Origin: Alphaproteobacteria bacterium
Lineage (GTDB): Bacteria > Pseudomonadota > Alphaproteobacteria > UBA2136 > UBA6156
Assembly: GCA_049297695.1 (NCBI GenBank)
Contig: JBAQUT010000021.1
Coordinates: 583 to 64,582, forward strand
Direction of reading: 5' to 3'
DNA: 64,000 bases
The translations under genes were made by a program, and so were the position numbers. This document shows, one piece after another, positions 4,442 to 31,722 of the stretch. Below the pieces are notes generated by a model that searched no databases, was not told where the DNA came from, and worked only from the letters and a program-made list of their open reading frames with translations. Position 1 is the stretch's first letter; every line of letters starts with the position of its first letter.

Positions 4442-4458
4442 TGGCAGGGGAGACAGGA
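4442..4458. repeat. Island att direct repeat (distal copy) tggcaggggagacagga
   Basis: Perfect 17-bp match to the 3-prime end of tRNA-Trp at 15112-15128. The GC/AT composition also shifts at this point. Confidence 0.65.
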
Positions 4459-5370: not shown

Positions 5371-5383
5371 GGCGGTGCCTTTC

Positions 5384-5509
5384 TTAAGCCCAAATCATCC
5401 AACCGATACCAACACCAAGGGCCATGCCATACAGCACCATGGCGGCGTAGACGATAACCATCTCGGAACGGTTGGCGGGTTCAACGTGGGGTGGGGGTTG
5501 GTTGGGCAT
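5384..5509 (-). CDS. 41-aa hydrophobic mini-protein (MPNQPPPHVEPANRSEMVIVYAAMVLYGMALGVGIGWMIWA)
   Basis: ATG..TAA frame found by eye; not in the ORF track (<60 aa). Single predicted TM helix. Speculative. Confidence 0.2.
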   Translation of the reverse strand: MPNQPPPHVEPANRSEMVIVYAAMVLYGMALGVGIGWMIWA

Positions 5510-5781
5510 GGGGGTTGTCCTTTGCGGGTTGAACAAAAAGCCACCCGATAAAAGGTGGCTGGGTGTTCTTAACCGTCAAAGACAACGGCGTGGTGCTTTT
5601 CAGCTTACGCCTTGGACAGCACACCACCACCCAGCCATAAGGGCTGCGTGGGCTTGCGCCCAAACAGAAAACGCACCTGTTGTGGAGGTGCCTGCCAGTC
5701 TATGAGGGGTTAAGAGCCCCAGAACGTCTTACCGTTCCAACCATAATCTAATATGTCCAACGGGATATGGGAAGGGCAAAG

Positions 5782-6156
5782 TTACTTGGTGGCCTGTTTG
5801 GCATTCTTGGCCTCAAGTCTTTCACGGCGCTTGGCTTCCCGTTCCGCTTTCCGCACCGCCCTGAACATGGCGTCAATCTCCTTGCGGGCATCCCAATATA
5901 GGAAGGCCGCTTCGGGGTCGGGTTGGTACTGACACACCTTCATTGCCATTTGGCGCTCGGCATATTGTTTGGCGGTTAGGCTTCGGGCGTGCAGGCGGGG
6001 TGGTTTGTTCTTCCGTACCTCGCGGGCAAGTTGAAGGTTTCTCCGCCGTGCCTCGTTCATGGCCTCGGTGTTGGTGAAGTTTTTACGGCCTGATTTTGAG
6101 CCGTTGGAAGTTTGTTTCTTACTCTGCTTTATCGGGGTGCCGTTTTGGTTATCCAT
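5782..6156 (-). CDS. Basic (Arg/Lys-rich) hypothetical protein
   Basis: 124 aa. Strongly basic N- and C-termini (KKQTSNGSKSGRK...REAKRRERLEAKNAKQATK). Island-borne. Possibly DNA-binding. Confidence 0.4.
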   Translation of the reverse strand: MDNQNGTPIKQSKKQTSNGSKSGRKNFTNTEAMNEARRRNLQLAREVRKNKPPRLHARSLTAKQYAERQMAMKVCQYQPDPEAAFLYWDARKEIDAMFRAVRKAEREAKRRERLEAKNAKQATK

Positions 6157-6200
6157 ATGAAAGTGCTTTCATTTTGTAGAAGTATAAAAATACATACATT

Positions 6201-7916
6201 TTAATCTTCAAACTTTTGAGAACGAATCTCTTTCATCTCTCGCTCAAACTTAGCAAGACGTTCCTTATCGGCACGAATCTCATCCTCCGACATACCCTCG
6301 TACCACCACTCCTCAGGCTCCGATGGGTTAGTTCGGTTAGGTTGGAGGGCGTTGCCCTGCGGCGTTACCGAATGCGCGTGTGTTTGCGTGGGGTTTCGGT
6401 AGGTGTGCCGAGTGGGAGTTCCCCCGACAGCTTCCCACATGGTGCAAACGGCTTCCAAATCGGCGGCGACCTCATTCGGGTTACCAAACCATTTACGCGC
6501 CCTATAAGCCTTAACAAACTTGTCAAAGTACTTCATCATTGCGTCAAAATCTTCGGTTTGGGCCTTAGCAGTGGCTATCTTTTTTTCATCCCTCTTAGCT
6601 GCCTCCCTCATTTTGCGGGAGAAGTTTTGCTCGCTGTACTTACGGTTGGCGATTTTCTCTGCCTCAGCCTCAGGTACGCCATGAGCGATAAGGTGGTACT
6701 TGTATCGCTCAAAATCATCACCCGAAGTTGCTGCAAGAAATTTGTTAATAAACATCTTCGGATTCATAAACTTGTCATACAAAGGTTCGGCTAAAGCACA
6801 AGCGAACCCTAAAGACGGGAGTGTCGGCATATTGTGCAAGCGTTTGAACGAAGCCTTTTGCAAACCAGCCCAGCTGTAGGCTATCCAAGTGGTAAACGCC
6901 AAAGCCTTATCACGGGGTAGTTCCATACGGCGTAAGGTTTTAACCCAGCCATGCAAGTGGCCAACCTTAGGAGCAAAATAGGTTTCGTAAGGGAATGCCC
7001 GCGCATAGCCCTCTTGCCATGCGGCAAGCACTGCATCGTTCAGCCTACCGTTGCTTAAAGTCTTTTCCCTGTGAGTAGCATCTACAGCCTTTTGAGTACT
7101 TTCGGGTAATGGTTTGGTTTTGATTTCTTCCTCAACAATCTCACCCTCTTCATTCACGGAGTATGTGATGATGCCGTTCTTGTGCTTGGATTCATAAATA
7201 GCCCTTTCGGTAAACCCTGAAAAATCCTGTGGTCTGTTCTGATGAGCCATATACCCCTCTCCCCCGTTCAAGGGGGAGGTAGGGGGATATAAATCAACTG
7301 GAAGATTAACAACTGGTAATAGGATGGCAGGTTTTGGTGTAGGACAGGTGGAAGGTTCTGTAACCTCTTTGGAAGAAATGGCTAACTTGCATCTTTTTCT
7401 CATTCTTGCCGTTAAACATTTGTTTTTATTAAAGGAGCTGAGATAGATAGCATCTGTAACCTTTTGTAGGGGAACAGACCTACTGGACGTAATCTCTGTC
7501 ACGTGAGGCTTATCGGAGTGTGCGTCTGGTTCAGGATAAACTGGAAAGCTGGCGATAAAAATGTTAGCTCCCTGAAAACCATTAGCCTTACGTGTAGGGC
7601 TCACCTGAATCCAACCAGCATTCTTGACTGCTTCGACTCTAGCAAATGCACTCCTGCGCGTAATACCAAGTTCTTTGGCGATTGTCTGCATCTTGATGCG
7701 GCCCGATGCTGGACCAAAGTCCATATATTTGTAGATAGCCAACAAGCACTCTTTTTGCTTTTGCGTACGGCGTGAGCGCATAAAAGCGTTACGCCAATCC
7801 ATAATCTTTGCGGGGTTTTTACGGGATATAATCTTACGCTTCTTACCAGTAAAGCTGGCGTTGATAGCGTGTCTGTAAATCTCAGATACAGAACTGTGTT
7901 TGATGGTCTCTAGCAT
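6201..7916 (-). CDS. HTH-containing protein, putative island replication initiator / regulatory protein
   Basis: 571 aa. N-terminal winged-HTH-like segment (MQTIAKELGITRRSAFARVEAVKNAGWIQV) like plasmid RepA/replication-protein HTH domains. Large C-terminal domain of unknown function. Confidence 0.4.
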   Translation of the reverse strand: MLETIKHSSVSEIYRHAINASFTGKKRKIISRKNPAKIMDWRNAFMRSRRTQKQKECLLAIYKYMDFGPASGRIKMQTIAKELGITRRSAFARVEAVKNAGWIQVSPTRKANGFQGANIFIASFPVYPEPDAHSDKPHVTEITSSRSVPLQKVTDAIYLSSFNKNKCLTARMRKRCKLAISSKEVTEPSTCPTPKPAILLPVVNLPVDLYPPTSPLNGGEGYMAHQNRPQDFSGFTERAIYESKHKNGIITYSVNEEGEIVEEEIKTKPLPESTQKAVDATHREKTLSNGRLNDAVLAAWQEGYARAFPYETYFAPKVGHLHGWVKTLRRMELPRDKALAFTTWIAYSWAGLQKASFKRLHNMPTLPSLGFACALAEPLYDKFMNPKMFINKFLAATSGDDFERYKYHLIAHGVPEAEAEKIANRKYSEQNFSRKMREAAKRDEKKIATAKAQTEDFDAMMKYFDKFVKAYRARKWFGNPNEVAADLEAVCTMWEAVGGTPTRHTYRNPTQTHAHSVTPQGNALQPNRTNPSEPEEWWYEGMSEDEIRADKERLAKFEREMKEIRSQKFED

Positions 7917-8223
7917 ACGATTTCCCCATTTGCTGTTAGTATGCCCTATGATGGCTTCTGGTACTTTGGGTGCTAAATGATTAGCTTAAATAATGGATTC
8001 ACTTGGGAATCTCGGAATAAGAAGAGCACGTCGCTCCACGTACTCATGTTGCTATATCAACACTAGAAAGTCAACATAAACCTCCGAAATATCTAAATAC
8101 TTTTCAATATGTTGTGCCCGACTTTAAGGAGTTCAATCAGACTCCCAGAACATCAGCGGCATGGTAGGTGTAGTGTGAGGGGGTGGGGTAATCCCAGTTT
8201 TTCTGAAAGGTGGGGGGGGTAGG

Positions 8224-8778
8224 TCAGGCCCGTAGGTAGTTGTACAGGGTCTCGCGGCTGATGTTGAAGGCGCGGGCGAGTGCTGCTTTGCTCTCCCCGC
8301 TGGCGATACGGGTGCGGAGGTCTTGGGCTTGGGCATCCGAGAGTTTGAAGGCCCGCCCTTTGTACACGCCTTTCTTTTTGGCGATGGCGATACCTTCCCG
8401 CTGGCGTTCAAGAATGAGTGACCGTTCAAACTGCGCAACTGAGCCTAACAGATTTAGCAGCAGGTTTGCCATGGGACTGTCTTCGCCCGTGAACGTCAAG
8501 CGTTCCTTAACGAACTCAACGGCCACGCCCCGCTTGGTGAGTGTGTCCACGATGGTGCGGAGGTTACCGAGATTGCGCGCCAAGCGGTCAAGGCTGTGCA
8601 CCACCAGCGTATCGCCCTGCCGCACATAGGCAAGTGCCTCGGTAAGGGCGGGGCGGTCGGTGGTGGCACCGCTGCATTTATCATTGAACGTACGCTCAAA
8701 GGTCATGCCTTCTAACTGGCGCTCGGTGTTTTGGTCGGTGGTGCTTACTCTGACGTATGCGATGCGTTGGCCTGTCAT
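8224..8778 (-). CDS. Serine recombinase (resolvase/invertase family, Hin/Gin/Pin-like)
   Basis: 184 aa. Catalytic N-terminus MTGQRIAYVRVSTTDQ with the conserved Ser. C-terminal HTH (ALARAFNISRETLYNYL). Confidence 0.9.
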   Translation of the reverse strand: MTGQRIAYVRVSTTDQNTERQLEGMTFERTFNDKCSGATTDRPALTEALAYVRQGDTLVVHSLDRLARNLGNLRTIVDTLTKRGVAVEFVKERLTFTGEDSPMANLLLNLLGSVAQFERSLILERQREGIAIAKKKGVYKGRAFKLSDAQAQDLRTRIASGESKAALARAFNISRETLYNYLRA

Positions 8779-8790
8779 GTCTATCTCCTT

Positions 8791-8812
8791 GTTAAGATGT
8801 GTCTATCTTAAC
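8791..8812. promoter_or_regulatory. Palindrome gttaagat-N6-atcttaac immediately upstream of the serine recombinase gene (candidate res/operator site)
   Basis: Perfect 8-bp inverted arms with a 6-bp spacer, 13 bp upstream of the recombinase start codon. Confidence 0.35.
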
Positions 8813-8951
8813 TCTTAGACTAGCGTAGCCATATGTCATGTAAAGTGCTTGGGTAACCCTATTTTGACGGTTTGGGCGTCTTTTTTGACTGTGGTGTTGG
8901 GGTATAGGTCAAGTGGGCGGTAGCAAAAAGAGGCTATGGCGAATCAGTCTA

Positions 8952-11114
8952 TTATCTCTCTAAGCTCTGCCGTGCTTGTATATCCCGTCCTTTATCAATC
9001 TCTTCCCGAATCATATCCTTAAGACCACCTAACCATACCCATTCCGTTAGATTGGGATAGTTACGTTCGGTTGCCGTGGCAAGGAATGGGCGTGCGGCCA
9101 TAAAGACAGCTTCGCGCTGGGAGCGTTCACGCCAGTTGAACCCATAAAGCCGCTCATCTCCCTGTAAAGCATCAGGGCGGAATCTGGTACGGTCAATGCG
9201 CCCCAGCTCTAATTCCTTGGCTTTTTCTTTCCAATCTTTTTTACCCGTTATCCATGGAATGTAGGACTGGATAGCCTCGCCTTCCAATGGATGAGGTGCC
9301 CGACGCCATAATCCCTGAGCTTGCCGAAACGTAAAGCCCATTAGAGAGCCGTTCAACATATTTTCACACCATTCAACCGTTACTACTTTGGCCCAATCAT
9401 CCTTGGCAAAGTTGGGGGCGTGAATCACGTTAACGAGCTGCTGACGAAGCTCATCAGGAGCTTTATCAACATCAGCAAGTGGCTGACTTAAGTATTTTTC
9501 AATGGTAGCTTCGTCCACAAGTGCGACAATATGGCTTCCGTTGTACAGGCATGCACTCCCATAACCATGAACGCAGTGCCCTTGAATATCGGCTTGTTTT
9601 CTTAGCTCCAGCTCATCAAGAAGCGGGAACATCCACACCGCTTGACCGTCTTTATGGAATCGTCTGGGTGGTGCTATGGGGAGCCACATAGTCGGCGGGA
9701 CATACGTTTCATTTTCTCCATTACCCGTCCGAATAGCCTCTAACCTGTTACGGAACATGCGAAGTTGTTCTGGAATATGATAACGATGGCTAGCCTCCAA
9801 AACATCCCACATGCCGTATTCAGTCAGCATTTTTCCAAGAAGCTTATTTGTCAGCGTCTCCCAACCTACTGCTGGAATCTCACGCGCATGCAGGGAAGAG
9901 AGTACATTCACCTTAGGGCCAACAAGCCGCCCTAAAATACTGCTTTTCCAATCTTCAATATCCCTGACGTTTTCAGCGGTACCGAGGGCTTGCATCTTCG
10001 TTAAAACCTGTTGCCAACGGGACTTAGGGTCTTTGACGGCGGTGGCGGTTTCTTTCCAGCACTCACTCCAATCTTTGCCCGTCACATCAACAAAGGACTT
10101 GATATAACGCATGACAGAGGTAAATGCTGACCATTCTGCTGCTGTGGTTGGATACCATGTGGGGTCTATACCATTCAGAACATGGGCATAAAGACGTAGG
10201 TCATCGTGAGATAATCCTGCTGGAACGGGGCCACGTAATCCTAAAAACTGAACCGCTGTTTTACTGGGTGGCTCTTTGACAGTTTGCGCAAGAAGTCGGG
10301 CTACACCATCAAGCACCGATTTACCTTCATCCACGTCTTGCGAGACTTGAGGGAGAATGTGGACAAGGTGTGGTAAGGCGGTGCCCGCTTCCAAACGGTG
10401 TCGCCCGTAGGCAAGCCAACCGTAAATATCCCTGTTATCCAAGCCCTCATCCGTTAAAAATCGGACAATCTCAGGGTTTAGGCATTCCACAAATGCTTGG
10501 AACAAGGCACTTTTACGAACGGTTTCAACCTGCTTAAAAACATTAACAAGGTCTTCTTTCCCAGCAGCAAAGAGCCTCCTATCGCCATGTATGGTGCCTG
10601 CGGCGGCATCATGGCTACGCATATGCTCCTCTAACCATGTGACACCATACTCAACTAACCGACCAATATGGTTGTGCGTTGGGGCGTAGTGAGCGGTGGT
10701 GGAATGTTCCTGAACGAACAAGCCAAGTGCTGTTTGATGTTGTCCTGTGGCGTAAGCTCGCCCCATCACATCAAATCGCCCTTCAGCGATTTCTTCAACC
10801 AAGCCACGAAGTTCTGACCGATTCACTTTTACGCGCCCTGCATGGATTTTGCCATTTTGAGCTTCAACCAAAACTTCTATACGGTTTGGCCGTTTGCCTT
10901 GTGAGTACGTAAGACTTTGCGCCAAGACTGTCCGATGAGGTTTACGGTCTCCGTATGACACCAGAATATGGGGGGCTTTATTATCCCATGCGGTATCAAG
11001 TTTCAGGGCACGAACTTTATCGTCAGGTAAAAAAATGCCTCGGGATGCCAACCATGCCGTAACCCCTTTTTCCAGAAGGTTTGTTACAGGAGGGCGTACG
11101 ATTTTGTTTGGCAT
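8952..11114 (-). CDS. Large hypothetical protein, possible PcfJ-like domain (conserved GHC motif)
   Basis: 720 aa. ...ADIQGHCVHGYGSACLYNGSHIVALVD... carries a GHC motif described for the PcfJ family. No other recognisable catalytic motif. Island cargo. Confidence 0.45.
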   Translation of the reverse strand: MPNKIVRPPVTNLLEKGVTAWLASRGIFLPDDKVRALKLDTAWDNKAPHILVSYGDRKPHRTVLAQSLTYSQGKRPNRIEVLVEAQNGKIHAGRVKVNRSELRGLVEEIAEGRFDVMGRAYATGQHQTALGLFVQEHSTTAHYAPTHNHIGRLVEYGVTWLEEHMRSHDAAAGTIHGDRRLFAAGKEDLVNVFKQVETVRKSALFQAFVECLNPEIVRFLTDEGLDNRDIYGWLAYGRHRLEAGTALPHLVHILPQVSQDVDEGKSVLDGVARLLAQTVKEPPSKTAVQFLGLRGPVPAGLSHDDLRLYAHVLNGIDPTWYPTTAAEWSAFTSVMRYIKSFVDVTGKDWSECWKETATAVKDPKSRWQQVLTKMQALGTAENVRDIEDWKSSILGRLVGPKVNVLSSLHAREIPAVGWETLTNKLLGKMLTEYGMWDVLEASHRYHIPEQLRMFRNRLEAIRTGNGENETYVPPTMWLPIAPPRRFHKDGQAVWMFPLLDELELRKQADIQGHCVHGYGSACLYNGSHIVALVDEATIEKYLSQPLADVDKAPDELRQQLVNVIHAPNFAKDDWAKVVTVEWCENMLNGSLMGFTFRQAQGLWRRAPHPLEGEAIQSYIPWITGKKDWKEKAKELELGRIDRTRFRPDALQGDERLYGFNWRERSQREAVFMAARPFLATATERNYPNLTEWVWLGGLKDMIREEIDKGRDIQARQSLER

Positions 11115-11123
11115 GGAAAAATC

Positions 11124-11726
11124 CTATAGGGTTGCGTTTCTGTCGGGCAACTCAACCCCAAAAGTTTGAGCAACAACCTGCCCTACCTCAGCAGGGTTCA
11201 AGGCCGTACTGGCTGAGCGGCAAGGTACTTGGAAGAACATGTCCTGCTCCCATTCCCCACAATACGCAGCACAAGCCTGATACATACGGCTGGCAGGGGT
11301 ATAATCAGAGTTATTTAGTTGTGGCACCAGATACACTTCTTCTCGTTCAGCCTCCATGCCTCGCCTGTGTGGCAAAGCCTTCATCATTCGCAACGCGTTG
11401 GAGCTATTCAAAAAAGTAGTGATGTCAACAGGGTCGCCTTCTGCACGAACAGCCTGATACTGACGCAAAAAGGCCGTTACCGCCTTGGCTCCACCTAAGG
11501 GGACAAACACACGGGCTAAAACTCCATTTACAGCATTTTCTGCCTCGGCAAACTCCAAAAACTCCATCAGGGAAAGAGGGTTGATATGCCCTACCTGTGC
11601 CGTGTCCATCATGGACGCCAAGCCATCGGGGTCGTTGTAACGGTTAGCCAAAGGTGCGAAACGGGCCAACACGAACCTGTGTGGCATACCTTGAAGTTCA
11701 ATCAGGCGAATCGGTAGCATGTACAC
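11124..11726 (-). CDS. Hypothetical protein (island cargo)
   Basis: 200 aa. 9-bp gap to the downstream 720-aa gene. No recognisable motifs. Confidence 0.5.
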   Translation of the reverse strand: MYMLPIRLIELQGMPHRFVLARFAPLANRYNDPDGLASMMDTAQVGHINPLSLMEFLEFAEAENAVNGVLARVFVPLGGAKAVTAFLRQYQAVRAEGDPVDITTFLNSSNALRMMKALPHRRGMEAEREEVYLVPQLNNSDYTPASRMYQACAAYCGEWEQDMFFQVPCRSASTALNPAEVGQVVAQTFGVELPDRNATL

Positions 11727-11796
11727 CTCTCCTATTTGAGCGTTGCATACAACAATATCGCTAATAAAACAAGAGGAAATCTATTTTAATACTACA

Positions 11797-12591
11797 CTAA
11801 ATCCCCAACCCCATCTGGCCCGTTTGGGGAAGCTGAACAATCCCGTTGATAAGCCACGTATCTGGCCAGCGAGAATGGGTACCCATGGCAAAAAGAAGGC
11901 CCTTGGCAGGTAGCTCGTGCCCCCAGCGTTCCTTCATCATTTCAAGGGTTTTTTCTTTACCGTACAATCTTTCCCATTGGAAATAGGTTGCCTCGGTTTC
12001 CCAATCTTGGCAGGTGCCTTCACGTTCACCGTCAGCAATGATATATTTGTATTTGAAGCGGTAAGGGCATGGTTTGTAGGGCAGTACAGGTTTCATGAAA
12101 AGGTCAGCTTGTCTGGAATAAAGGTCAAACTTTTCCCGTTCCTCCTCATACTCAGCGGGAGATTTCTCCTCCACGATAAACCCCTTAATGGTCGGGCGAA
12201 TGAAGGCAAAACTTCGGCCAGCCTCCCGTTCTGCTACAAGGCTTGTTTTAACCATCGGGTCTATCAAGCCAAATCGCTGCGCTTCGGGCAGAGTTCCAAC
12301 AACGGCGAGAGATTGGTGCTCTACACGGCGACTTTCAAGGCGGGCATCGTCTTTGGGGGTTCGCCATTGATATTTCACAACATCCCAACGGCGGAACTGC
12401 TGGGCGGCGTCAAGACTACGGAAAGTAATCGGGTAAAGCCGTACCCAATGGCCATCACGGGTGATAGCAGCTGTACAAACGGTTTCACCATGCTTATCAC
12501 CCAACTGTGGGGCGGCTTTGACCATGATAATGGCCTCGTCCGTTTGAGGGTCAAGCAGCGAGGTGGTTTGGGATGATAAATGGTTGGCCAT
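11797..12591 (-). CDS. Hypothetical protein (island cargo)
   Basis: ORF 11797-12648. Start chosen at MANHLSS (12591), which overlaps the stop of the upstream DUF488 gene by 41 nt. No recognisable motifs. Confidence 0.45.
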   Translation of the reverse strand: MANHLSSQTTSLLDPQTDEAIIMVKAAPQLGDKHGETVCTAAITRDGHWVRLYPITFRSLDAAQQFRRWDVVKYQWRTPKDDARLESRRVEHQSLAVVGTLPEAQRFGLIDPMVKTSLVAEREAGRSFAFIRPTIKGFIVEEKSPAEYEEEREKFDLYSRQADLFMKPVLPYKPCPYRFKYKYIIADGEREGTCQDWETEATYFQWERLYGKEKTLEMMKERWGHELPAKGLLFAMGTHSRWPDTWLINGIVQLPQTGQMGLGI

Positions 12592-13069
12592 GCAACGAGA
12601 TTCCTGTATCAACAGTAAGATTATGCACTTGCATGCCCGTAAGTTCAAGGAGGTGGTTAGCTACAATGCTACGGTGGCATTCGCAATGATTATGTTCAAA
12701 ACACATAAGGCAGACGGGAGCTTTGCGGGCCATTTCGGCAGCAACATGTAAATCTGTCTGGGCGTATGGAGTTGTCATGTGTTGGCCGAAAATACGCCGA
12801 AACAGGCGATAATCTCCTGCACGGGCAGCCTCACGGCCCGCCTTTGGGTCTCCTAACCCGCGCAAGTGAACATAACGAATACCATTAGCCTCCAATGTGG
12901 CCTTCAAGATAGATTTTGAAAAGCCTTTCTTGCGGGAGAGAGGCATCTCACGAACATCCAACAGGGTATGTATCCCCGCATCTTGTAGGGTCAGCACAAA
13001 ATCCTCCACACGGGAGCCTTCGTAACCAATGGTGTAAAGCGTTTTTTCTAATGCCATGGCCAACAGCAT
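12551..13069 (-). CDS. DUF488-like protein with C-terminal Cys/His cluster
   Basis: 172 aa. N-terminus LYTIGYEGSRVEDFVLTLQDAGIHTLLDVREMPLSRKKGFSK matches the DUF488 signature. C-terminus CLMCFEHNHCECH suggests metal binding. Confidence 0.55.
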   Translation of the reverse strand: MLLAMALEKTLYTIGYEGSRVEDFVLTLQDAGIHTLLDVREMPLSRKKGFSKSILKATLEANGIRYVHLRGLGDPKAGREAARAGDYRLFRRIFGQHMTTPYAQTDLHVAAEMARKAPVCLMCFEHNHCECHRSIVANHLLELTGMQVHNLTVDTGISLHGQPFIIPNHLAA

Positions 13070-13195
13070 ACCCTAAACCACCCGTCATGGCATCCGTTTT
13101 CCTGATTCTATGCCGTGGGGTGTAGCACAAACTTACAACGCCATTTTTTCTTGACCAAAAAATGATACTAAGTATTTGAAACGAAATGATTTCGT

Positions 13196-15007
13196 TTAGG
13201 ATTTCTTATAGGGTTTGAGGTGTTTTGTCACGGCTTCAGGGTATGTGAGTTTACAGATGGCCTCGTGCAGTTTTTCCAGTGATATGTCATCGGTGTATCC
13301 TTCCGTTACCGAACCTGCGGTACTGTGGCCTAGGAGAGCTTGCACGGTATCCATGGGGATGCCACATTCACGGCGGCATGTGCTGGTAAACGTATGGCGA
13401 AAACTATGGAACACCAGCTTTCTGCGTTTAAGTTCAATGCCCTCAAGGTACGTACGAAAAAGTCTTGTAAAGTTTTGGGAATACGTGCCATCCCATCCAC
13501 GCTCAATCTCTTCAAAAATACGCTTGCGGCCTTGTTTGGTCATATCGGAAACAAAACGGGTTATACCCAGTTCAATCAGTTTGGGGTGGATGGGTATTAC
13601 GCGTTTGCTTGATGCACTTTTTATGCTCTTACCCTCAATACCGCCCTCATCATCGTTGACATCAAAATACCATATATCGTTAGCTTGCTTGATGTCTCCG
13701 ACAGCCATCTGGCAAATCTCACCTGACCGCATCCCCGTGTATAGGCTAATCAAAGGCACCCAATACAGTGCGTCCATGGTGATGGTATCGCCCTTTTTAT
13801 AACGGTATTGGTAGATTCCGTCTGGTTGGTGGCCTGTGTATTGAGGGGTGTTGAAAAACTTAACTAAATCGTCGGCTTTATAGGATTCACGTTTTTCATT
13901 CGATTTGGCTTTATCCATAGCCTCAAAAGTTGGCAAAACTTGACTGGCGGTACGCTCGCTGGTCATAAGCCACTTTTTAAAACTACGTAGGTTAACGTTA
14001 TATTTATCTTGGTTAGCAGGTGAAAAAGTGGGGAGCTTTTTGCCTGCCTCTAAAATCTCCGCCATGGGTTTGCCAGCGAGTTGTTTAAGTTTGGTGTAGT
14101 TTTTGGGCACTTGGCCAAGGTTGCTGGAAAACTCCATCAAGTGTTTGTTGGTAAACTGGTTCACTTGTTTGATGTTCGGGAACATCTCACGGAACAGGGT
14201 AAAGCAGGATTCAATATCCAGTACCGTTTTTATGTTTTTTCCTTTGTTTCGCTTCTCGGTGGCGTAGGCCTTCATGGCCTCCTCCAAGGTTTCAGACGTA
14301 TCATGCGCCTTGGCAGGTGGCGCAATGGTAGGCTGGGTATCAGGTGGAAGGACGTAGCGGGGTAAATGAATCTCGCCGTTGCTCAGGGTTTCTGGCATGG
14401 GGTGGATAATGTCCGTATCAATCCCTTGGAATACGGCATCATTTATTTTGGCCTCGGCATAATCGCCTTTGGCCTTGGCAAGGTAGATGCGGGCAGCTTC
14501 AATCTCGGCTTGGGTGAACAGCCTGTCCAGATAGTTTTCAAGCTCGCGCTCGCTGTCTACAAGTTTGGTGAGAATGAGTCTTTTCAGGTAGGAGCGCTGC
14601 TGGGTGTCGGGGGGCGTTTTCTGACGCAGCTTTTCGCGTTTGGCGGTGAGAGATTCCACCGTCTCGGCAACGTCTTCGGCGAGTTGTTCAGTATCAAACA
14701 CTTCAAGCCACATGTTACGTTCAGCTAACGTATCGGCAAAATGCTCACGCGCAATACGCTTGAGGGCCTTAACCACGTCTGGGTTGGAGAGCTGAAGGTC
14801 TACGTGAAGAAGTTGGGCCATGGCGATTTGGATCTTTGCTACAATGACTTTAGCAGCCCGACCATCGGTTGTCTTGAGGGAAATACATAAACTGATGCGG
14901 CGGGGGCATCCCTGCCGTTTGGGCAGCATGGCACGAAAGTAAAACTTCTGCCCGCGCTGGAAAAGGTACGGGGTTTTGGTGGCCTGTAACTGATAAACGT
15001 CTCCCAT
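13196..15007 (-). CDS. int: Tyrosine-type site-specific integrase
   Basis: C-terminal catalytic region with R...HSFRHTF...Y motifs. Start set at MGDVYQ (15005-15007) because the longer ORF runs into the tRNA. Adjacent to tRNA-Trp. Confidence 0.85.
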   Translation of the reverse strand: MGDVYQLQATKTPYLFQRGQKFYFRAMLPKRQGCPRRISLCISLKTTDGRAAKVIVAKIQIAMAQLLHVDLQLSNPDVVKALKRIAREHFADTLAERNMWLEVFDTEQLAEDVAETVESLTAKREKLRQKTPPDTQQRSYLKRLILTKLVDSERELENYLDRLFTQAEIEAARIYLAKAKGDYAEAKINDAVFQGIDTDIIHPMPETLSNGEIHLPRYVLPPDTQPTIAPPAKAHDTSETLEEAMKAYATEKRNKGKNIKTVLDIESCFTLFREMFPNIKQVNQFTNKHLMEFSSNLGQVPKNYTKLKQLAGKPMAEILEAGKKLPTFSPANQDKYNVNLRSFKKWLMTSERTASQVLPTFEAMDKAKSNEKRESYKADDLVKFFNTPQYTGHQPDGIYQYRYKKGDTITMDALYWVPLISLYTGMRSGEICQMAVGDIKQANDIWYFDVNDDEGGIEGKSIKSASSKRVIPIHPKLIELGITRFVSDMTKQGRKRIFEEIERGWDGTYSQNFTRLFRTYLEGIELKRRKLVFHSFRHTFTSTCRRECGIPMDTVQALLGHSTAGSVTEGYTDDISLEKLHEAICKLTYPEAVTKHLKPYKKS

Positions 15008-15111
15008 CCCCCCTCCTGCGTCACAAATCTTGCGCCGCCTGCGCCACAAAATCGTGGTGTTTGGGTGATTGGAGTAAAGTATCTTAATAGTTTGAATAAT
15101 ATAACAAATAT

Positions 15112-15187
15112 CTGGCAGGGGAGACAGGACTCGAACCTGCAACCAAAGGTTTTGGAGACCTCTACTCTACCAATTGAGCCACTCCCC
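15112..15187 (-). tRNA. trnW: tRNA-Trp (anticodon CCA)
   Basis: 76 nt. Acceptor stem AGGGGAG/CTCCCCT. Anticodon loop CTCCAAA. T-loop TTCGAGT. Discriminator G plus an encoded CCA. Confidence 0.85.
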
Positions 15188-15366
15188 TGTGGATGTGGGT
15201 ATGCCACGGTTTGGGGGTGGGGGTCAAGATACCCTGTGGCCTGTATGGAGTGCCTGCAAAAGCATCTGATTTTATACAGTTTAACCCAGCAAAACCGCCA
15301 CACGGGGTGCCTGTATTCGGGGCAGCGGCCTCGCCCCTTGCGCAAGGCTGGCGTAAGGTGGGGCCC

Positions 15367-16636: not shown

Positions 16637-17815
16637 TTAAAGAACCTGCAACGGCGGCAAAGGTTTGCCTTGCAAGGCGTGCATCAACGCCGCGGCACCG
16701 CTGGCCACATGGGGCAGGTGGCGGCGCAGGTCGCCTTCACGCAGCACTTTTTGGAGTCCATCGCCCCCCACCACGCTGAAGGCTTGGCTGTGCAACACAG
16801 CGTTGGCAAGGCCCAGCGTACCTTCCTGAAACGCCTTATGCTCCACCGCGCCCATGCTGCCCAGCCATATCAGGCTGCCAGCCTGCTGGATAACCTTGCT
16901 CCACGTAGCTAACGTTTGCGGCCCAATGTCCATGGCCATGTCGGTATCCCGCAGTACCGTGGCGGGGCGAGTTTCCGGCGTTGCAAACCCGTGGCGTTGG
17001 GTTACGGTGAAATCCAGTGGCAACAGCAAACGGCACCCTAGCACGCCCGCTTCGGTAAAAATCTCGCGAGCTTCGTTCACGCAGTCGGGGTCTACCATGC
17101 TGTGGCCAAGGCCCATATCCCGGCTGGCCAAAAACGTGTGGGCCACCACGCCACCCAAAATCAGCGTGTCCACCTTGGTCATCAGGTGGCGTATCACTTC
17201 CAGCTTGTGGGGCACCTGCGCCCCCCCCAACATGCACACCAAGGGGCGGGCAGGGGTTTGGGTTAGGCGGTTCAGCCATTCCAGTTCCATCAACATGCGG
17301 GGGCCTAGAACACTCTCCGCCATGGTGGCGGCAAGGCCCGAAACACTGGCGTGCGGGCGGTGTGCCACGGCAAAGGCGTCGTTCACAAACACCTCGCCCA
17401 GGCTGGCCAGTTGTTTTACAAAACGGGGGTCGTTTATCTGCTCGCCCAAATGGAAACGGGTATTTTCTAACAGCAAAACTTCTCCTGCGCCCAGCTTGGC
17501 AACGGCCTGCTCGGCCACGCGGCCCACACAATCGGGCACAAAGCCTACGGGAGTGCCTAAAAGTTTGGAAAGGTGTTCAGCCAACGGCAAGGTAGAAAGG
17601 TTGGGTACTACCTGCCCCTGCGGCCGCCCCCGGTGGGTGAGCAACACCAAGCGGGCTTTACGCTTCAACAACGTTTGAATGGCAGGCAGGTGCACGTGCA
17701 AGCGGTAGTCATCCACCAACCCGCCCGTGGCCGTGGGGGGGATGTTGAAGTCCACGCGCATCAGCACCGCGCGGTTTTCTACGTTCACATCGGCAAGGGT
17801 GGGGTAGGGTTGCAT
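16637..17815 (-). CDS. pgk: Phosphoglycerate kinase
   Basis: 392 aa. N-terminal LMRVDFNIPP motif and overall PGK architecture. Confidence 0.85.
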   Translation of the reverse strand: MQPYPTLADVNVENRAVLMRVDFNIPPTATGGLVDDYRLHVHLPAIQTLLKRKARLVLLTHRGRPQGQVVPNLSTLPLAEHLSKLLGTPVGFVPDCVGRVAEQAVAKLGAGEVLLLENTRFHLGEQINDPRFVKQLASLGEVFVNDAFAVAHRPHASVSGLAATMAESVLGPRMLMELEWLNRLTQTPARPLVCMLGGAQVPHKLEVIRHLMTKVDTLILGGVVAHTFLASRDMGLGHSMVDPDCVNEAREIFTEAGVLGCRLLLPLDFTVTQRHGFATPETRPATVLRDTDMAMDIGPQTLATWSKVIQQAGSLIWLGSMGAVEHKAFQEGTLGLANAVLHSQAFSVVGGDGLQKVLREGDLRRHLPHVASGAAALMHALQGKPLPPLQVL

Positions 17816-17855
17816 GGTATTTAAAAACTTTGCCCGCGAAAATGCAGATTAGCAA

Positions 17856-17884
17856 TTGACCATGCGCCAGCCCTCTCTTAATGT
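17856..17884 (+). promoter_or_regulatory. Putative sigma70-like promoter TTGACC-N17-TAATGT upstream of the zapA operon
   Basis: Near-consensus -35/-10 elements with 17-nt spacing about 25 nt upstream of the coiled-coil gene. Confidence 0.25.
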
Positions 17885-17910
17885 AGTACATGAAGTGGGA
17901 AAGGGGACAC

Positions 17911-18204
17911 ACCATGAGCACACCGATGCTGGAACTGCCCAAACTGGCCGATACGCGCAGCACCCAACGCCTTTTAAATATTTTATCCCAACTGGAAGAA
18001 TCTACTGCCAACCGCTCCAGCCTTGCCACCTCTGTTGAAAACGGCGTGGTGGACATGAAGGTGGAAGGCGAGATTGCCCGCCTGCGCCGCGAGAACAAAG
18101 CCCTGAAAGCCAACATGAAGCAAGCGTTGGAGCGGATTGACGCCCTGATGGAGGCCATGACCCGTGAATCCCACACCCAACCCGCTGAGAGCATGGCGGC
18201 ATGA
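17911..18204 (+). CDS. Coiled-coil protein (ZapB-like / DUF4164-type, frequently paired with zapA)
   Basis: About 97 aa. Heptad-rich segment (EIARLRRENKALKANMKQALERIDAL). Stop overlaps the zapA start. Confidence 0.5.
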   Translation, partial: TMSTPMLELPKLADTRSTQRLLNILSQLEESTANRSSLATSVENGVVDMKVEGEIARLRRENKALKANMKQALERIDALMEAMTRESHTQPAESMAA

Positions 18205-18488
18205 CGAACATGCTGAGCATCACCTTGGGCGGCAAAACCTACCGCTTGGCCGTGCCCACAACCGAAGAAGCCAAAGTGAACAATCTGGCCGCCCATGTGG
18301 ACAGCCTGATGCAGGATATCCGCAAGGCCGACCCCTCGATGGATAGGGACAACATGTGGGCGCTGGTGGCCCTGCAACTGGCCTCCCAAGCCACCGAAGC
18401 CATGGGCAAGCTGGACGAGCAGGGGCACAGCGTGATGCAGTTCCACCGAGCTGTGGCGCTGAAATTAGAAGCGCTGTTGCCTCAATAG
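18201..18488 (+). CDS. zapA: Cell division protein ZapA
   Basis: 95 aa. LSITLGGKTYRLAVPTTEE...ALVALQLA pattern typical of ZapA. Conserved zapA-ygfA neighbourhood. Confidence 0.75.
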   Translation: MTNMLSITLGGKTYRLAVPTTEEAKVNNLAAHVDSLMQDIRKADPSMDRDNMWALVALQLASQATEAMGKLDEQGHSVMQFHRAVALKLEALLPQ

Positions 18489-18497
18489 AAGTTGTTG

Positions 18498-18597
18498 GTT
18501 GTAAGTTGTAGGTTGTAACTGTAGCCCATTTCGAAATGCCTCGAGATTTTATGGAGTTCCCAATCAAACGCGACAGTTACAACCTACAACTTACAAC
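18498..18597 (+). ncRNA. Candidate structured RNA / repeat hairpin between zapA and ygfA (position where ssrS/6S RNA is normally found)
   Basis: Perfect 25-bp inverted repeat (gttgtaagttgtaggttgtaactgt / acagttacaacctacaacttacaac) flanking a 50-nt loop. No canonical 6S features could be verified by eye. Confidence 0.25.
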
Positions 18598-18637
18598 GCC
18601 TCTTGCAAAAAGAGGCTCTGGGCCCCATATCCCCTCC

Positions 18638-19252
18638 ATGCGTCTCGTCAAGCAACCCAAGGCTTTGCCGTTTACGGTGGACCCCGCCAATCGCGGCATC
18701 AAAGCCGTGAAGGCCGCGTTGCGGGAAGAATTCAAGGCCCGCCGCGCTCTGATTAGCCCCGATTTGCGGGATACCACCCGCTGGAAAGTGACCAACCATC
18801 TGCGCACGCTGTTGGCGGGGATGGATGGCGTGGTGGCCTTGTACTACCCCCTGGGCGCCGAGATTGACCTGCGCCCCTTGGGGGCGGAACTGTGGAGGGC
18901 GGGCATGAACGTGGCCTTGCCCCGTGTGGTGGAGCGTGGCCATGCGTTGCGGTTTAACATCTGGACACCCGACGGCGCTACGGAGCCCGATGCTGTGGGC
19001 CTACCCACCGCCACAGGGCCAGAAGTATGGCCCACCATCATGGTCATCCCTATGCTGGGGTACAGCAAAACGGGCCATCGGCTGGGGTACGGCGGCGGAT
19101 ATTACGACCGCACGCTGAAAACCGCGCCCATCCCAACGTTAAGCATCGGCGTGTGCTACACCGAGCTGGAAGTGGACGATTTCCCCGCCGAATACCACGA
19201 CCAGCGGCTGGAATATGTGGTGACGGGAAAAGAGGTTATCAGGTGTTGGTAG
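18638..19252 (+). CDS. ygfA: 5-formyltetrahydrofolate cyclo-ligase
   Basis: ORF 18536-19252. Start chosen at MRLVKQPKA. C-terminal MLGYSKTGHRLGYGGGYYDR motif is diagnostic of MTHFS. Confidence 0.8.
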   Translation: MRLVKQPKALPFTVDPANRGIKAVKAALREEFKARRALISPDLRDTTRWKVTNHLRTLLAGMDGVVALYYPLGAEIDLRPLGAELWRAGMNVALPRVVERGHALRFNIWTPDGATEPDAVGLPTATGPEVWPTIMVIPMLGYSKTGHRLGYGGGYYDRTLKTAPIPTLSIGVCYTELEVDDFPAEYHDQRLEYVVTGKEVIRCW

Positions 19253-19253
19253 A

Positions 19254-19278
19254 GTGTTGTAAGTTGTAGGTTGTAACT
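19254..19278 (+). repeat. GTTGTAR heptamer array copy (gttgtaagttgtaggttgtaactgt)
   Basis: Identical to 18498-18522. One of four copies in the window. Confidence 0.6.
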
Positions 19279-19345
19279 GTCGTTCACTGTTGTGGGGTTC
19301 CGCAACAAGGGGGTTGAGGGGGCGAAGCCCCCTCACGACCGTAGG

Positions 19346-19375
19346 TCGTCATGGCGAGCGTAGCGTGGCCATCTC
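19346..19375 (+). repeat. Dispersed 30-bp intergenic element tcgtcatggcgagcgtagcgtggccatctc (copy A)
   Basis: One of 5 near-identical copies. Upstream of and co-oriented with the YmdB-like gene. Confidence 0.6.
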
Positions 19376-19503
19376 CCAAGGTTTAAATTGGCATAAAGTA
19401 ACGATATTTAGCTTTCGTTTCTACCCTAACCGATGGAGAAGAAAAGTGGATATGCTTACAACTAACACCTGACAACCACCAACAGCTTTGCTATAAGCAA
19501 AGC

Positions 19504-20304
19504 ATGAACCTCCTCTTCCTCGGCGATATCGCCGCATCTTCCGGCCGCACCGCCCTTGCCAAACATTTGCCTTTGTTGCGGGAAAAGTACGCGCTGGACT
19601 GCGTGATTGCCAACGGCGAAAACAGCCACAGCACCAGCCGTGGCATTACCGAAGACACGGCGCAAGAGATCTTCCGTGCAGGGGTAGACGTGATTACGCT
19701 GGGCGACCACACGTTTGACCAAAAAGGGGTGGAAGTGCTGCTGGCCCAAAACCAGCGCATCATCCGCCCCGCCAACTACCCGCAGGGCACGGTGGGGCGC
19801 GGGCACACGGTGTTCACCACCGCCAGCGGCAAGCGGGTAGGGGTTATCAACTTGCAAGGTCGCGTGTTCATCAACCAGCAAACCGATTGCCCCTTCCAAA
19901 AAGCCAAGGCGCTGATGGACGAACTCCGCTTGGGCGATACCGTGGATGCGCTGGTGGTGGATATCCACGCCGAAGCGACATCCGAAAAATGCCTGATGGG
20001 CTATGTGTGGGATGGCAAGGCCAGCCTTGTCGTGGGTACGCACACGCACATCCCTACCAACGATGCCCGCATCCAACCCAAAGGCACGGCGTACCAATCC
20101 GATGCCGGCATGTGCGGCGATTACAATTCGTCGCTGGGCATGAGCTTTGAGAGCGTGCTACCCCACATGCTGCAACGCGGCCGCTTTAAGTTTGAACCCG
20201 CCAGCGGCGAAGGCACCCTGTGCGGCGTGCTTGTTACCGTGGGTGCAAACGGCTTGGCCACCCACGTGCAAAGCATCAAGGTGGGCGGGGTTTTGGGGGA
20301 GTAA
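19504..20304 (+). CDS. YmdB-family metallophosphoesterase (TIGR00282-like)
   Basis: 266 aa. N-terminal MNLLFLGDIAASSGR...VIANGENSH metallophosphatase motifs. Confidence 0.8.
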   Translation: MNLLFLGDIAASSGRTALAKHLPLLREKYALDCVIANGENSHSTSRGITEDTAQEIFRAGVDVITLGDHTFDQKGVEVLLAQNQRIIRPANYPQGTVGRGHTVFTTASGKRVGVINLQGRVFINQQTDCPFQKAKALMDELRLGDTVDALVVDIHAEATSEKCLMGYVWDGKASLVVGTHTHIPTNDARIQPKGTAYQSDAGMCGDYNSSLGMSFESVLPHMLQRGRFKFEPASGEGTLCGVLVTVGANGLATHVQSIKVGGVLGE

Positions 20305-20310
20305 AACGTG

Positions 20311-20340
20311 TCGTCATGGCGAGCGTAGCGTGGCCATCTC
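20311..20340 (+). repeat. Dispersed 30-bp intergenic element (copy B)
   Basis: tcgtcatggcgagcgtagcgtggccatctc, followed immediately by ATG. Confidence 0.6.
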
Positions 20341-20928
20341 ATGAACAAAGGAGAAATGACAATGAGTGATAACCGGCAGTGGTTGATCGAGAAACTTAAC
20401 GCTTATACAGGTTTCACGGATGAGTACGAACATATTTCAAAAATCATGACGTTGGAATATTTACGTCATCATTCAAGGGCGTTTTGGCGAGATGAATTTG
20501 TGCCTGGCCATCTGACATCATCTGCGTGGATTGTTAATCCAAGTCGCACTAAAGTTTTAATGATGTACCATAAATATATTCAAAAATGGCTTCAATTTGG
20601 TGGCCACGCCGATGGAAATCCAAATCTTGTCGAGGTTGCCCTTAAAGAAGCAAGCGAAGAAACGGGATTGGATATATCGTTGTTTGAAGTGTTAATGAAC
20701 GAAGCGATCTTCGATGTTGCGATTGTTCCCGTTCCTGCAAATCCCAAAAAGAATGAGCCAGACCATGTTCACTTTGATATTCGCTTCTTGTTAGAATTAG
20801 ACGATGCAATTCCTTTGCCTGAGAATCCTGAAGGGTTGGATGTCCGTTGGTTGGAGTTCAACGAGGCCCATCGACTCATTTCATCCGGAAATACCTGCTT
20901 GCGGATGTTGGAAAAAAGTATCTCTTAG
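20341..20928 (+). CDS. NUDIX hydrolase (AT-rich, probably horizontally acquired)
   Basis: Nudix box region GGHADGNPNLVEVALKEASEETGL. True start may be the ATG at 20359, which has an aaaggaga SD. GC is markedly lower than the neighbours. Confidence 0.7.
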   Translation: MNKGEMTMSDNRQWLIEKLNAYTGFTDEYEHISKIMTLEYLRHHSRAFWRDEFVPGHLTSSAWIVNPSRTKVLMMYHKYIQKWLQFGGHADGNPNLVEVALKEASEETGLDISLFEVLMNEAIFDVAIVPVPANPKKNEPDHVHFDIRFLLELDDAIPLPENPEGLDVRWLEFNEAHRLISSGNTCLRMLEKSIS

Positions 20929-21857: not shown

Positions 21858-21971
21858 ATGGCCGTTGCCAAGAAAAAACCTGCTGCTAAAAAAGCAGCTG
21901 TGAAAAAAGCTCCTGCTAAAAAAGCAGTTGCTAAAAAAGCTCCTGCAAAGAAAGCAGCTAAGAAGAAGTAG
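21858..21971 (+). CDS. 37-aa Lys/Ala-rich histone H1-like mini-protein (MAVAKKKPAAKKAAVKKAPAKKAVAKKAPAKKAAKKK)
   Basis: Not in the ORF track (<60 aa). AKKA repeats. Weak SD (aagg) upstream. Strong intrinsic terminator immediately downstream. Confidence 0.5.
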   Translation: MAVAKKKPAAKKAAVKKAPAKKAVAKKAPAKKAAKKK

Positions 21972-22016: not shown

Positions 22017-22025
22017 TCAAAAATA

Positions 22026-22055
22026 TCGTCATGGCAAGCGTAGCGCGGCCATCTC
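22026..22055 (+). repeat. Dispersed 30-bp intergenic element (copy C, 2 mismatches)
   Basis: tcgtcatggcaagcgtagcgcggccatctc. Upstream of the cytochrome b561 gene. Confidence 0.6.
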
Positions 22056-22093
22056 ATGCGTGATAGAATCAAACGGCAAACAAGGAGAAAACC

Positions 22094-22615: not shown

Positions 22616-22623
22616 GAGGGAAA

Positions 22624-22653
22624 TCGTCATGGCGAGCGCAGCGTGGCCATCTC
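22624..22653 (+). repeat. Dispersed 30-bp intergenic element (copy D)
   Basis: tcgtcatggcgagcgcagcgtggccatctc. The ruvC ATG follows immediately. Confidence 0.6.
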
Positions 22654-23148
22654 ATGACATCTAGAACCCAACGTATCTTGGGCCTCGACCCCGGCTTGGA
22701 GCACACGGGCTATGGTATAATCGATGTAACCGGCAACCACTCCCGCTACGTCGCCTGTGGCCGTATCACCACCAAAGCAGCAGAGCCCTTGCCTCAACGC
22801 CTTGCCACCATTGCGGCGGGTATTTCGGCCCTCATCACCGAACACAAACCCACCATGGCGGCGGTGGAAGAAGTGTTTGTGAACACCAACGCACGGAGTT
22901 CGCTCAAGCTGGGGCAGGCGCGGGGCATATGCCTGCTGGTGCCTACTCAACACGGGTTGCCCGTGCACGAGTACGCGGCGCGGCTGGTCAAAAAGTCCAT
23001 TGTGGGCACGGGCGGCGCGGAAAAACACCAAGTGGCCCACATGGTGAAAGTGCTGCTGCCCACATCGCCCACCCCCATCCCCCCCGATGCCGCCGACGCC
23101 TTGGCCGTGGCGTTAACGTGTGGCGTGTTGGGAACGAAAACGTACTAG
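22654..23148 (+). CDS. ruvC: Crossover junction endodeoxyribonuclease RuvC
   Basis: 164 aa. N-terminus RILGLDPGLEHTGYGI with the catalytic Asp. No ruvA/ruvB follows. Confidence 0.9.
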   Translation: MTSRTQRILGLDPGLEHTGYGIIDVTGNHSRYVACGRITTKAAEPLPQRLATIAAGISALITEHKPTMAAVEEVFVNTNARSSLKLGQARGICLLVPTQHGLPVHEYAARLVKKSIVGTGGAEKHQVAHMVKVLLPTSPTPIPPDAADALAVALTCGVLGTKTY

Positions 23149-31044: not shown

Positions 31045-31722
31045 TTAACCCATCCTCACCACGCGCGAACACCGTTTCGCCAACTCCATGTTGTGCGTTA
31101 CAATCAGGGCAGCCATGCCTTCGGTGTTAATCAGGTGGAACAGCAGGTCGGTCACACTTTCCGCCGTATGGGGATCCAGATTGCCCGTAGGTTCATCCGC
31201 CAACAGCAGGGCAGGGCGGTTCATCAAGGCGCGGGCAATGGCCACACGCTGCTGCTCACCTCCCGACAACTGGCTAGGGTAGTGCTCCAAACGATGCCCC
31301 AACCCGACAGCCCCCAAAAGCTCCTCGGGCCGTTCCTGTAATCCTGTCATCCTGTCATCCAGTAATCCTGTTCCTATTCTGGCCGGCATCCCCACATTCT
31401 CCACCGCGGTAAACTCGCGCAACAAATGGTGGTGCTGGTACACAAACCCCATGGTGGCGTTGCGAATACGTGCCTGCTGCCCATCCGGTAACGTGTCGGC
31501 CCGCACGCCGTTCACCCACACCTCGCCGGTGTTGGGTTTGTCCAAAAGCCCCGCCATGTGCAGCAGGGTGCTTTTGCCGCAGCCGCTGGGGCCTACAATG
31601 GCCACGCTTTCGCCCGCGTTCAGGGTAAAATCCATATCCTTCAAAACAGTCACACGGGCAGGGCCTTCGCCATACCAGCGGGAGACAGCGCGCATATCCA
31701 ACAGGGGTGGGGTGTGTGTCAT
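31045..31722 (-). CDS. lolD: Lipoprotein-releasing system ATP-binding protein
   Basis: 225 aa. Walker A GPSGCGKST. ABC signature LSGGEQQR. Adjacent to the LolC/E permease. Confidence 0.85.
   Translation of the reverse strand: MTHTPPLLDMRAVSRWYGEGPARVTVLKDMDFTLNAGESVAIVGPSGCGKSTLLHMAGLLDKPNTGEVWVNGVRADTLPDGQQARIRNATMGFVYQHHHLLREFTAVENVGMPARIGTGLLDDRMTGLQERPEELLGAVGLGHRLEHYPSQLSGGEQQRVAIARALMNRPALLLADEPTGNLDPHTAESVTDLLFHLINTEGMAALIVTHNMELAKRCSRVVRMG

Follow-up and report, generated by a model that had tools for sequence, protein, structure and literature searches.

The spacer between zapA and the 5-formyltetrahydrofolate cyclo-ligase (5-FCL) gene ygfA contains a 100-bp palindrome with perfect arms, and both arms consist of a few tandem copies of the heptamer GTTGTAR. 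This palindrome is probably an inverted doublet that represents one copy of a lineage-specific dispersed intergenic repeat, organized as an array, an unrelated 50-nt core, and an inverted array; the repeated module is about 27 nt long and comprises 3 to 4 heptamers and a short tail. Heptanucleotide arrays are a class already known in Xanthomonas, cyanobacteria, Beggiatoaceae, and Bacteroidetes, and the best reading is that the GTTGTAR element joins this class. Positions given below are those of the window, that is, the whole 64-kb stretch of DNA that was analyzed.

Heptamer arrays and their gene context

The 25-mer GTTGTAAGTTGTAGGTTGTAACTGT is found in the 64-kb window without mismatch at 18498-18522 (plus strand), 18573-18597 (minus strand), and 19256-19280 (plus strand), and with 3 mismatches at 36916-36940 (minus strand), whereas 100 dinucleotide shuffles give an expectation of 0 copies. 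The perfect 25-bp inverted repeat with a 50-nt loop that the earlier note had described at 18498/18573 was confirmed by the exact match of both arms, which never appeared in the shuffles. Its stem pairs 25 bp with no mismatch and lengthens to 28 nt at 96%, the loop then being 44 nt. Folded as RNA, the palindrome reaches -64.7 kcal/mol (z = -8.3); in the minimum-energy fold the 50-nt loop has only short local helices, and the stem is 36% GC.

By TRF and pattern searches, five period-7 arrays, each with 3 to 4 units, were found in the window, all of them intergenic and distributed over 3 loci. Array 1 (18491-18522, plus strand) forms the left side of the palindrome and starts 2 nt 3' of the zapA stop; its units are GTTGTTG, GTTGTAA, GTTGTAG, and GTTGTAA followed by CTGT, giving four GTTGT cores. 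The core or loop (18523-18572) is a unique stretch of 50 nt that has no second copy in the window and is unlike the cores of the other elements, and array 2, the right arm (18573-18597, minus strand), is the exact reverse complement of 18498-18522. Array 3 (19256-19282, plus strand; GTTGTAA, GTTGTAG, GTTGTAA, and CTGTCG) starts 3 nt 3' of the ygfA stop, and the segment 18571-18597 is identical to it across 27 nt, the nonperiodic tail CTGTCG included. Its inverted partner, array 4 (19455-19483, minus strand), is degenerate (GTTGGTG, GTTGTCA, GGTGTTA, and GTTGTAA), and the two make up the second pair in the window beside arrays 1 and 2. Array 5 (36915-36950, minus strand; GTTGTAA, GTTGTGG, GTTGTAG, and GTTGTAA, then CTC) is a singlet that starts 1 nt 3' of the accC stop (TAG at 36951-36949); it is sense oriented with respect to accC and has no inverted partner, and its region (36900-36960) is no more stably folded than shuffles (z = -0.09). 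The leading arrays behind zapA, ygfA, and accC (arrays 1, 3, and 5) all start 1 to 3 nt past the stop codon on the sense strand, and the number of units differs between copies (3 versus 4).

Several positions in the earlier note needed correction. The third copy, which it gave as 19254-19278, exists but is shifted by 2 nt to 19256-19280, and the 4-unit version placed at 36909-36937 is real but lies at 36915-36950 on the minus strand, while the array at 19455-19483 (minus strand) had been overlooked. The "partial copies" seen near 2864 and 13118 did not survive, as they are single GTTGTAAG 8-mers (2862-2869 and 13132-13139) at chance level; this 8-mer occurs 8 times in the window, with 5 occurrences within arrays, where 1.8 are expected.

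The local gene order is pgk (minus strand), a small coiled-coil ORF, zapA, ygfA, a YmdB-type phosphoesterase gene, NUDIX, and YebC. zapA (18201-18488, plus strand) ends with TAG at 18486-18488; ygfA (18638-19252, plus strand) encodes 204 aa, as does NCBI entry MFZ2586837.1, and its homologues have about 200 aa. The names given earlier to both genes hold, with matches to ZapA (PF05164) and 5-FTHF cyclo-ligase (PF01812) obtained on an identical 3.1-kb Logan contig from a public sequencing run. The YmdB-type phosphoesterase gene (ymdB) lies at 19504-20304.

A putative promoter of ygfA lies at 18602-18630 (plus strand) and reads CTTGCA, 17 nt, CCATAT, 7 nt, and ATG. When the ygfA upstream regions of six related loci were lined up by start codon, without alignment software, they had CTTGNN, 17 nt, CCAYMT, 7 to 9 nt, and ATG in common. 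A motif of the form CTTGNN, 17 nt, CCAYMT or TATAAS, 5 to 9 nt, and ATG stands before ygfA, ymdB, and the HAD gene 3' of accC (18602-18630, 19469-19497, and ~36866-36896 on the minus strand, respectively, in the window), and such sites are also present in L128, a sister strain, and in the related loci L122, L123, L125, and L141. The ygfA and ymdB motifs are kept in the relatives, and that of the HAD gene was seen in the window only. A simple sigma-70 scan did not call the promoter-like sites of the three genes, and a Shine-Dalgarno sequence is not evident at any of them. This arrangement suggests that ygfA, ymdB, and the HAD gene may each have their own promoter and a leaderless mRNA. The palindrome ends 4 nt before the -35-like box of ygfA and, judged from the predicted motif, fills the only free gap between the zapA stop and the promoter-like sequence. 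Array 4 overlaps the putative -35 box of ymdB (CTGACA, 19469-19474), which may be a reason why this array is kept in both L128 and L123. GC skew is too noisy to give the direction of replication.

The arrays also carry stop codons. In GTTGTAAGTTGTAGGTTGTAA, TAA, TAG, and TAA are found in frames 2, 3, and 1, and the reverse complement has none; correspondingly, the TAA, TAG, and TAA of array 1 cover all three reading frames, and array 2 read on the plus strand is free of stop codons. The module is thus oriented such that the strand met by an incoming ribosome has stops in 3 frames and the outgoing strand has none. Since both arms are stop bearing inward, the doublet shows three-frame stops to translation from either side. 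In L128 (positions 882-909 of that contig), a 4-nt difference joins the end of ygfA to array 3, which supplies the stop codon, and the protein ends in RCC* rather than the conserved RCW*; it is a natural case of an array ending a shifted reading frame. On the identical Logan contig, an automated gene call places the ygfA start at 18551, within the palindrome, which gives a product of 233 aa (29 codons too long); the antisense arm has no stops and therefore leaves the frame open for this extended call.

Other repeats and an island were noted in the same window. A second dispersed repeat of ~32 nt, TCGTCATGGCGAGCGTAGCGTGGCCATCTCATG, has five copies, all intergenic, at 19345-19377, 20310-20342, 22025-22057, and 22623-22655 on the plus strand and at 38323-38356 on the minus strand, and two of them end within the ATG of the next gene (20341 and 22654). 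It opens with CGTC, like one REP superfamily, and its fold is no better than that of shuffles (z = 0.37). There are also a 15-nt coding repeat rich in AAA (Lys) and GCN (Ala) codons at 21873-21970, an 8-nt tandem repeat (TCCTGTAA-like, 4.8 copies) at 31334-31371, and a tandem pair of paralogous genes of the Vut_1 family, 73% identical, at 34558-35371. The region ~3000-15200, where GC falls to ~50%, is a probable genomic island adjoining a tRNA (15116-15188); on the minus strand it encodes a tyrosine integrase (13196-15142), a DUF488 protein (12551-13069), and a serine resolvase (8224-8778), and it has large ORFs without a Pfam match at 6201-7916, 8952-11114, 11124-11726, and 11797-12648.

Sister strain, relatives, and the 6S RNA question

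L128 is a contig obtained from a different sample, with 98% identity in the 5-FCL protein and ~97% in the DNA. Except for two spacers, zapA-ygfA and ygfA-ymdB, it can be aligned with the window over its full length. The zapA-ygfA spacer of this sister strain is 39 nt long, and in the pairwise alignment the window has 110 additional nt (18488-18597) opposite a clean gap, consisting of 10 nt (GAAGTTGTTG) and the complete 100-nt palindrome, arms and loop alike. L128 ends zapA with TAA where the window has TAG, whose G comes from the extra block, and at the empty site only ~4 nt separate the zapA stop from the -35-like box. The 110 nt at 18488-18597 are therefore an indel between near-identical strains; a gain in the window and a loss in L128 are both compatible with the alignment. 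Divergence from L128 is far higher in the 40 nt 3' of the element than in the flanking genes, and for this reason the event may have been a replacement and not a clean insertion.

In the ygfA-ymdB spacer, L128 keeps arrays 3 and 4, and ~146 nt between them are missing: positions 19278-19423 of the window stand in place of 21 nt of L128. This block contains a mini GTTGT/ACAAC hairpin (19289-19308), a copy of the 32-nt repeat, and a GC-rich hairpin, GAGGGGGCGAAGCCCCCTC, at 19316-19334, where Logan contig L121 ends; the spacer as a whole is a nest of small elements. For a second filled/empty comparison, at the accC array, the sole close homologue of the downstream HAD gene came from the same organism.

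In the more distant locus L123, whose protein identity is 72%, the two orthologous spacers both contain inverted arrays, built from a different unit, GGTTGAT/GTTGATR. Both left arrays start no more than 3 nt past the stop codon, and the folding energies of the hairpins are -45.5 kcal/mol (z = -5.9) and -41.9 kcal/mol (z = -4.0). The cores of the elements in the window, L128, and L123 do not align to one another, and in the orthologous ygfA-ymdB hairpin one compensatory double change (GTTGTAAG/CTTACAAC versus GTTGTTAG/CTAACAAC) keeps the pairing. With GTTGATR in L123 and GTTGTAR in the window at the same spacers, each genome has its own unit variant common to its loci, as in REP families. Heptamer arrays are absent from L122, L125, L141, and L143.

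Many proteobacteria, E. coli among them, have ssrS, the gene for 6S RNA, between zapA and the 5-FCL gene. The earlier note had proposed on this basis that the spacer element is part of 6S RNA or its replacement, and had suggested an Rfam scan. The synteny and the folding of the region as a long hairpin speak for such an origin. However, at gathering scores the scan of the whole 64 kb returned two tRNAs and no other family, and a permissive scan of 18100-19700 did not bring up the 6S family (RF00013) even at an E value of 10, giving only spurious weak matches to plant microRNA hairpins that are caused by the long stem. The 6S fold has a closing stem, a large central bubble, and a terminal stem over ~180 nt, whereas the element has 100 nt, a perfect 25-bp stem with a 50-nt loop, and no bubble; moreover, the 25-mer recurs at other sites of the window, and the sister strain does not have the element. 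None of the six related loci (L122, L123, L125, L128, L141, and L143) has 6S RNA next to ygfA. The zapA-ygfA spacers among the relatives are 39, 47, 108, and 154 nt long, and those of 39, 47, and 108 nt are too short for a 6S gene, so that they give no sign of a past 6S RNA here; in these sequences we see no sign that 6S would ever have held this position in the clade. What the palindrome has in common with 6S RNA is the genomic position and a long helix only, and it differs in lacking a covariance-model match and a central bubble, in being repeated within the window, and in varying between strains. The identification of the palindrome as a 6S RNA gene is effectively refuted, and the chance that it is 6S RNA in any form, be it the whole, a part, or a remnant after replacement, is close to nil.

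Arrays in other genomes and known repeat systems

A loose genome scan with three consecutive GTTGTRR units gave at least 120 loci from unrelated phyla, with the source genome not among the matches listed. The metagenome scan with GTTGTRRGTTGTAGGTTGTAAC gave 10 loci, none from the source species, and the viral collection contained no exact match to the 22-mer. Genome and metagenome scans together yielded a comparative sample of ~130 loci (L001-L120 and L129-L138, 0.91 Mb). Proximity to stop codons was evaluated with ORFs of at least 120 codons for the 158 GTTGT-core arrays among the matches listed. An ORF stop lies within 10 nt upstream of the array in 24 sense versus 4 antisense cases (binomial p = 2e-4) and within 25 nt in 39 sense versus 13 antisense cases, and in 13 further cases among these matches the ORF ends inside the array. 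Paired arrays among the matches listed are mostly convergent, 5'-(GTTGTNN)n ... (NNACAAC)n-3' (13 loci, versus 2 divergent ones; p = 0.007), and there the convergent architecture spans phyla and GC contents of 32 to 69%. Over all heptamer families, the stop-bearing arm is the 5' arm in 8 versus 3 cases, and the strand bias among stop-free GTTGTGG arrays is 4 versus 2; both comparisons rest on few cases.

In the sampled loci, period 7 is far above periods 8 to 11; among the matches listed for L001-L120 and L129-L138, there are 374 arrays of period 7, 34 of period 8, and 7 of period 9. The genomes with GTTGT arrays are also rich in unrelated heptamer units, for instance, AAGATGA/TCATCTT pairs in L039 and several units in L005, and the feature they have in common is thus the period and not the sequence.

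A full-text literature search by heptamer strings retrieved no relevant paper on this particular heptamer. Xanthomonas has ~186 arrays of GGGAATC per genome, mostly with 4 units and ~90% intergenic, which lie very near or overlap the stop of the upstream ORF and include 70 to 75 convergent pairs; the counterpart unit in Nostoc is GGGGAYT (Rehm et al. 2015, PMC4692102). The arrays described here are likewise head-to-tail repeats of period 7 (3 to 4 units, the class having 2 to 6), intergenic beside a stop, and joined in convergent pairs (arrays 1/2 and 3/4). Together with the Xanthomonas and Nostoc arrays, the cyanobacterial STRR, and the long simple sequence repeats (LSSR) of Mrazek 2007, they are characterized by short arrays of commonly ~4 units, ~90% intergenic location at or overlapping a stop, frequent convergent pairs able to form stem-loops, and lengths that differ between close relatives, in a class without a known function or spreading mechanism. 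Unlike the Xanthomonas and Nostoc units, GTTGTAR is not G rich and cannot form a G-quadruplex. It has a stop codon in every unit, whereas GGGAATC has none in either orientation, so that stops in all three frames are no general feature of the heptamer class. The present arrays also differ in coming from an uncultured alphaproteobacterium, and the empty site in the sister strain shows that the doublet was gained or lost as one block.

The TAACTGA repeats, which in the forward orientation stop translation in every frame (MacGregor 2015, PMC4679880), are known from Beggiatoaceae, cyanobacteria, and Bacteroidetes and resemble the present arrays in having 2 to 6 direct heptamer units, an intergenic location, stops in all forward frames with an open reverse strand, and a patchy distribution across phyla. 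However, they are mostly found just 5' of start codons, with one inverted set reported, whereas the arrays here come after stop codons and frequently form pairs. REPINs consist of two inverted REPs whose spacer varies, and singlets are their decayed form (Bertels & Rainey 2011, PMC3116915); the palindrome similarly is a hairpin-forming, inverted module doublet around a variable spacer. With REPINs and BIMEs it has in common two modules of ~25 nt around a less conserved spacer, a size of ~100 bp, an extragenic location, singlets beside doublets, and compensatory changes that preserve the hairpin. Each REP, however, is imperfectly palindromic and bears a tag, GTAG or CGTC, recognized by a RAYT transposase, whereas the arm here is a direct heptamer array in which GTAG occurs inside the unit only and never as a terminal tag. 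A classic REP was accordingly rejected, the arms being direct repeats and not palindromic.

With bacterial MITEs (e.g., Correia, Nezha, and RUP), the element has in common a small size (<500 bp), terminal inverted repeats, a noncoding and intergenic nature, and filled and empty sites between strains. The MITE-like insertion considered in the earlier note is supported insofar as the block of 110 nt is missing as a whole in L128, but no target-site duplication or flanking direct repeat is readable at the junctions of 18488-18597, the interior is not conserved between copies, no parent IS was identified, and no transposase was found in the ORFs scanned. The terminal repeats are themselves composed of tandem subrepeats, which differs from MITEs and is reminiscent of eukaryotic foldback elements.

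Two further candidates were rejected. No intrinsic terminator was called on the plus strand of 17800-19600, and the 36% GC stem, the 50-nt loop, and the missing T-run do not fit one. An integron attC site (5'-RYYYAAC ... GTTRRRY-3') has the opposite polarity to 5'-GTTGTAA ... TTACAAC-3', GTTGTAA misfits GTTRRRY, and the flanking genes are core genes with conserved synteny.

Origin and possible role of the element

In the preferred reading, that of a dispersed intergenic repeat, the element would be spread or homogenized by copy-paste, through either transposition in trans or template switching/gene conversion, and copies would persist only where genes and promoters are unharmed. Such survival at harmless sites would account for the placement right after stop codons. 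On the zapA-operon transcript, the element is predicted to fold into the perfect 25-bp hairpin, starting 10 nt past the stop. Like REP elements, this hairpin would be expected to shield the upstream mRNA from 3' exonucleases; it is also a possible substrate of RNase III and would part zapA read-through from the ygfA promoter. Neither a transposase nor a RAYT was found by Pfam in ten ORFs (nine at 3.0 to 16.6 kb and the small ORF 5' of zapA), and the only proteins of the recombination type among these ten are the integrase and resolvase of the island.

The hairpin could alternatively be a selected cis-acting RNA element of the 3'-UTR and not selfish DNA, with proposed roles in stabilizing or processing the zapB-zapA transcript, stalling terminating ribosomes, or shielding the leaderless ygfA promoter. 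In E. coli, REPs within 15 nt of a stop codon stall terminating ribosomes. The sense-strand bias and the nearness to stops point to a link with gene expression, convergent polarity is favored, independent elements retain hairpin potential with one compensatory change, and the element lies exactly between a stop codon and a promoter-like motif. Nevertheless, we regard a selected RNA function as unlikely: the sister strain lacks the element and has the same genes and promoter intact, L122, L125, and L141 lack arrays, the accC singlet cannot make a hairpin, the missing U-tract speaks against a canonical terminator, and selection against harmful insertions explains the placement equally well. A local origin without mobility appears more doubtful still. 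Here slippage would have made the arrays, and template switching or gene conversion between spacers 760 bp apart would have made the inverted copy and homogenized the arms. The location of all three identical copies within 800 bp is consistent with such a history, as are the variation between 3 and 4 units, the L123 arrays in the same two spacers, and the failure to see a target-site duplication or a transposase; heptamers are also the commonest long simple-sequence unit in bacteria, which is ascribed to slippage (Mrazek 2007, as summarized in PMC4679880). Yet the identity extends into the nonperiodic tail CTGTCG, L128 misses both arms together with the unique 50-nt core, accC, 17 kb away, is followed by a related copy, and the genome-specific unit variant is common to several loci.

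It is very improbable that the arrays are iteron-like sites where GTTGT is recognized every 7 nt by a DNA- or RNA-binding protein, such as a regulator, a nucleoid protein, or a partition protein. The regular spacing, the conserved 5-nt core with 2 variable bases, and the occurrence of GTTGT-core arrays in many phyla would suit such sites, but a 7-bp spacing sets successive sites on different faces of B-DNA, the same genomes bear many unrelated heptamer units with only the period in common, no protein emerged as a candidate, and the neighboring genes have no function in common. A broader and distinctly speculative proposal is that (GTTGTNN)n-short core-(NNACAAC)n doublets form one cross-phylum class of polar elements that act as portable translation and transcription insulators and spread by an undescribed mechanism with a 7-nt ruler and no known transposase; members of such a class may settle at or in stop codons, show three-frame stops to both sides, and fold into long hairpins.

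As a dispersed intergenic repeat, a single copy of the element is an ordinary small repeat without a demonstrated function. For annotation that relies on synteny, the analysis removes a tempting but wrong 6S RNA call. Heptamer arrays beside stop codons were already known, with no mechanism attached to them; what is added here is a pair of strains with and without the element and a unit that does not form a G-quadruplex. That GTTGTAR, without G-quadruplex capacity, has the same placement and pairing argues against the G-quadruplex as a general explanation of such arrays, and the strand bias and convergent polarity point instead to gene-end context, period, and polarity. The filled/empty pair of ~97%-identical strains could be used to measure the effect of the hairpin on the expression of the neighboring genes.
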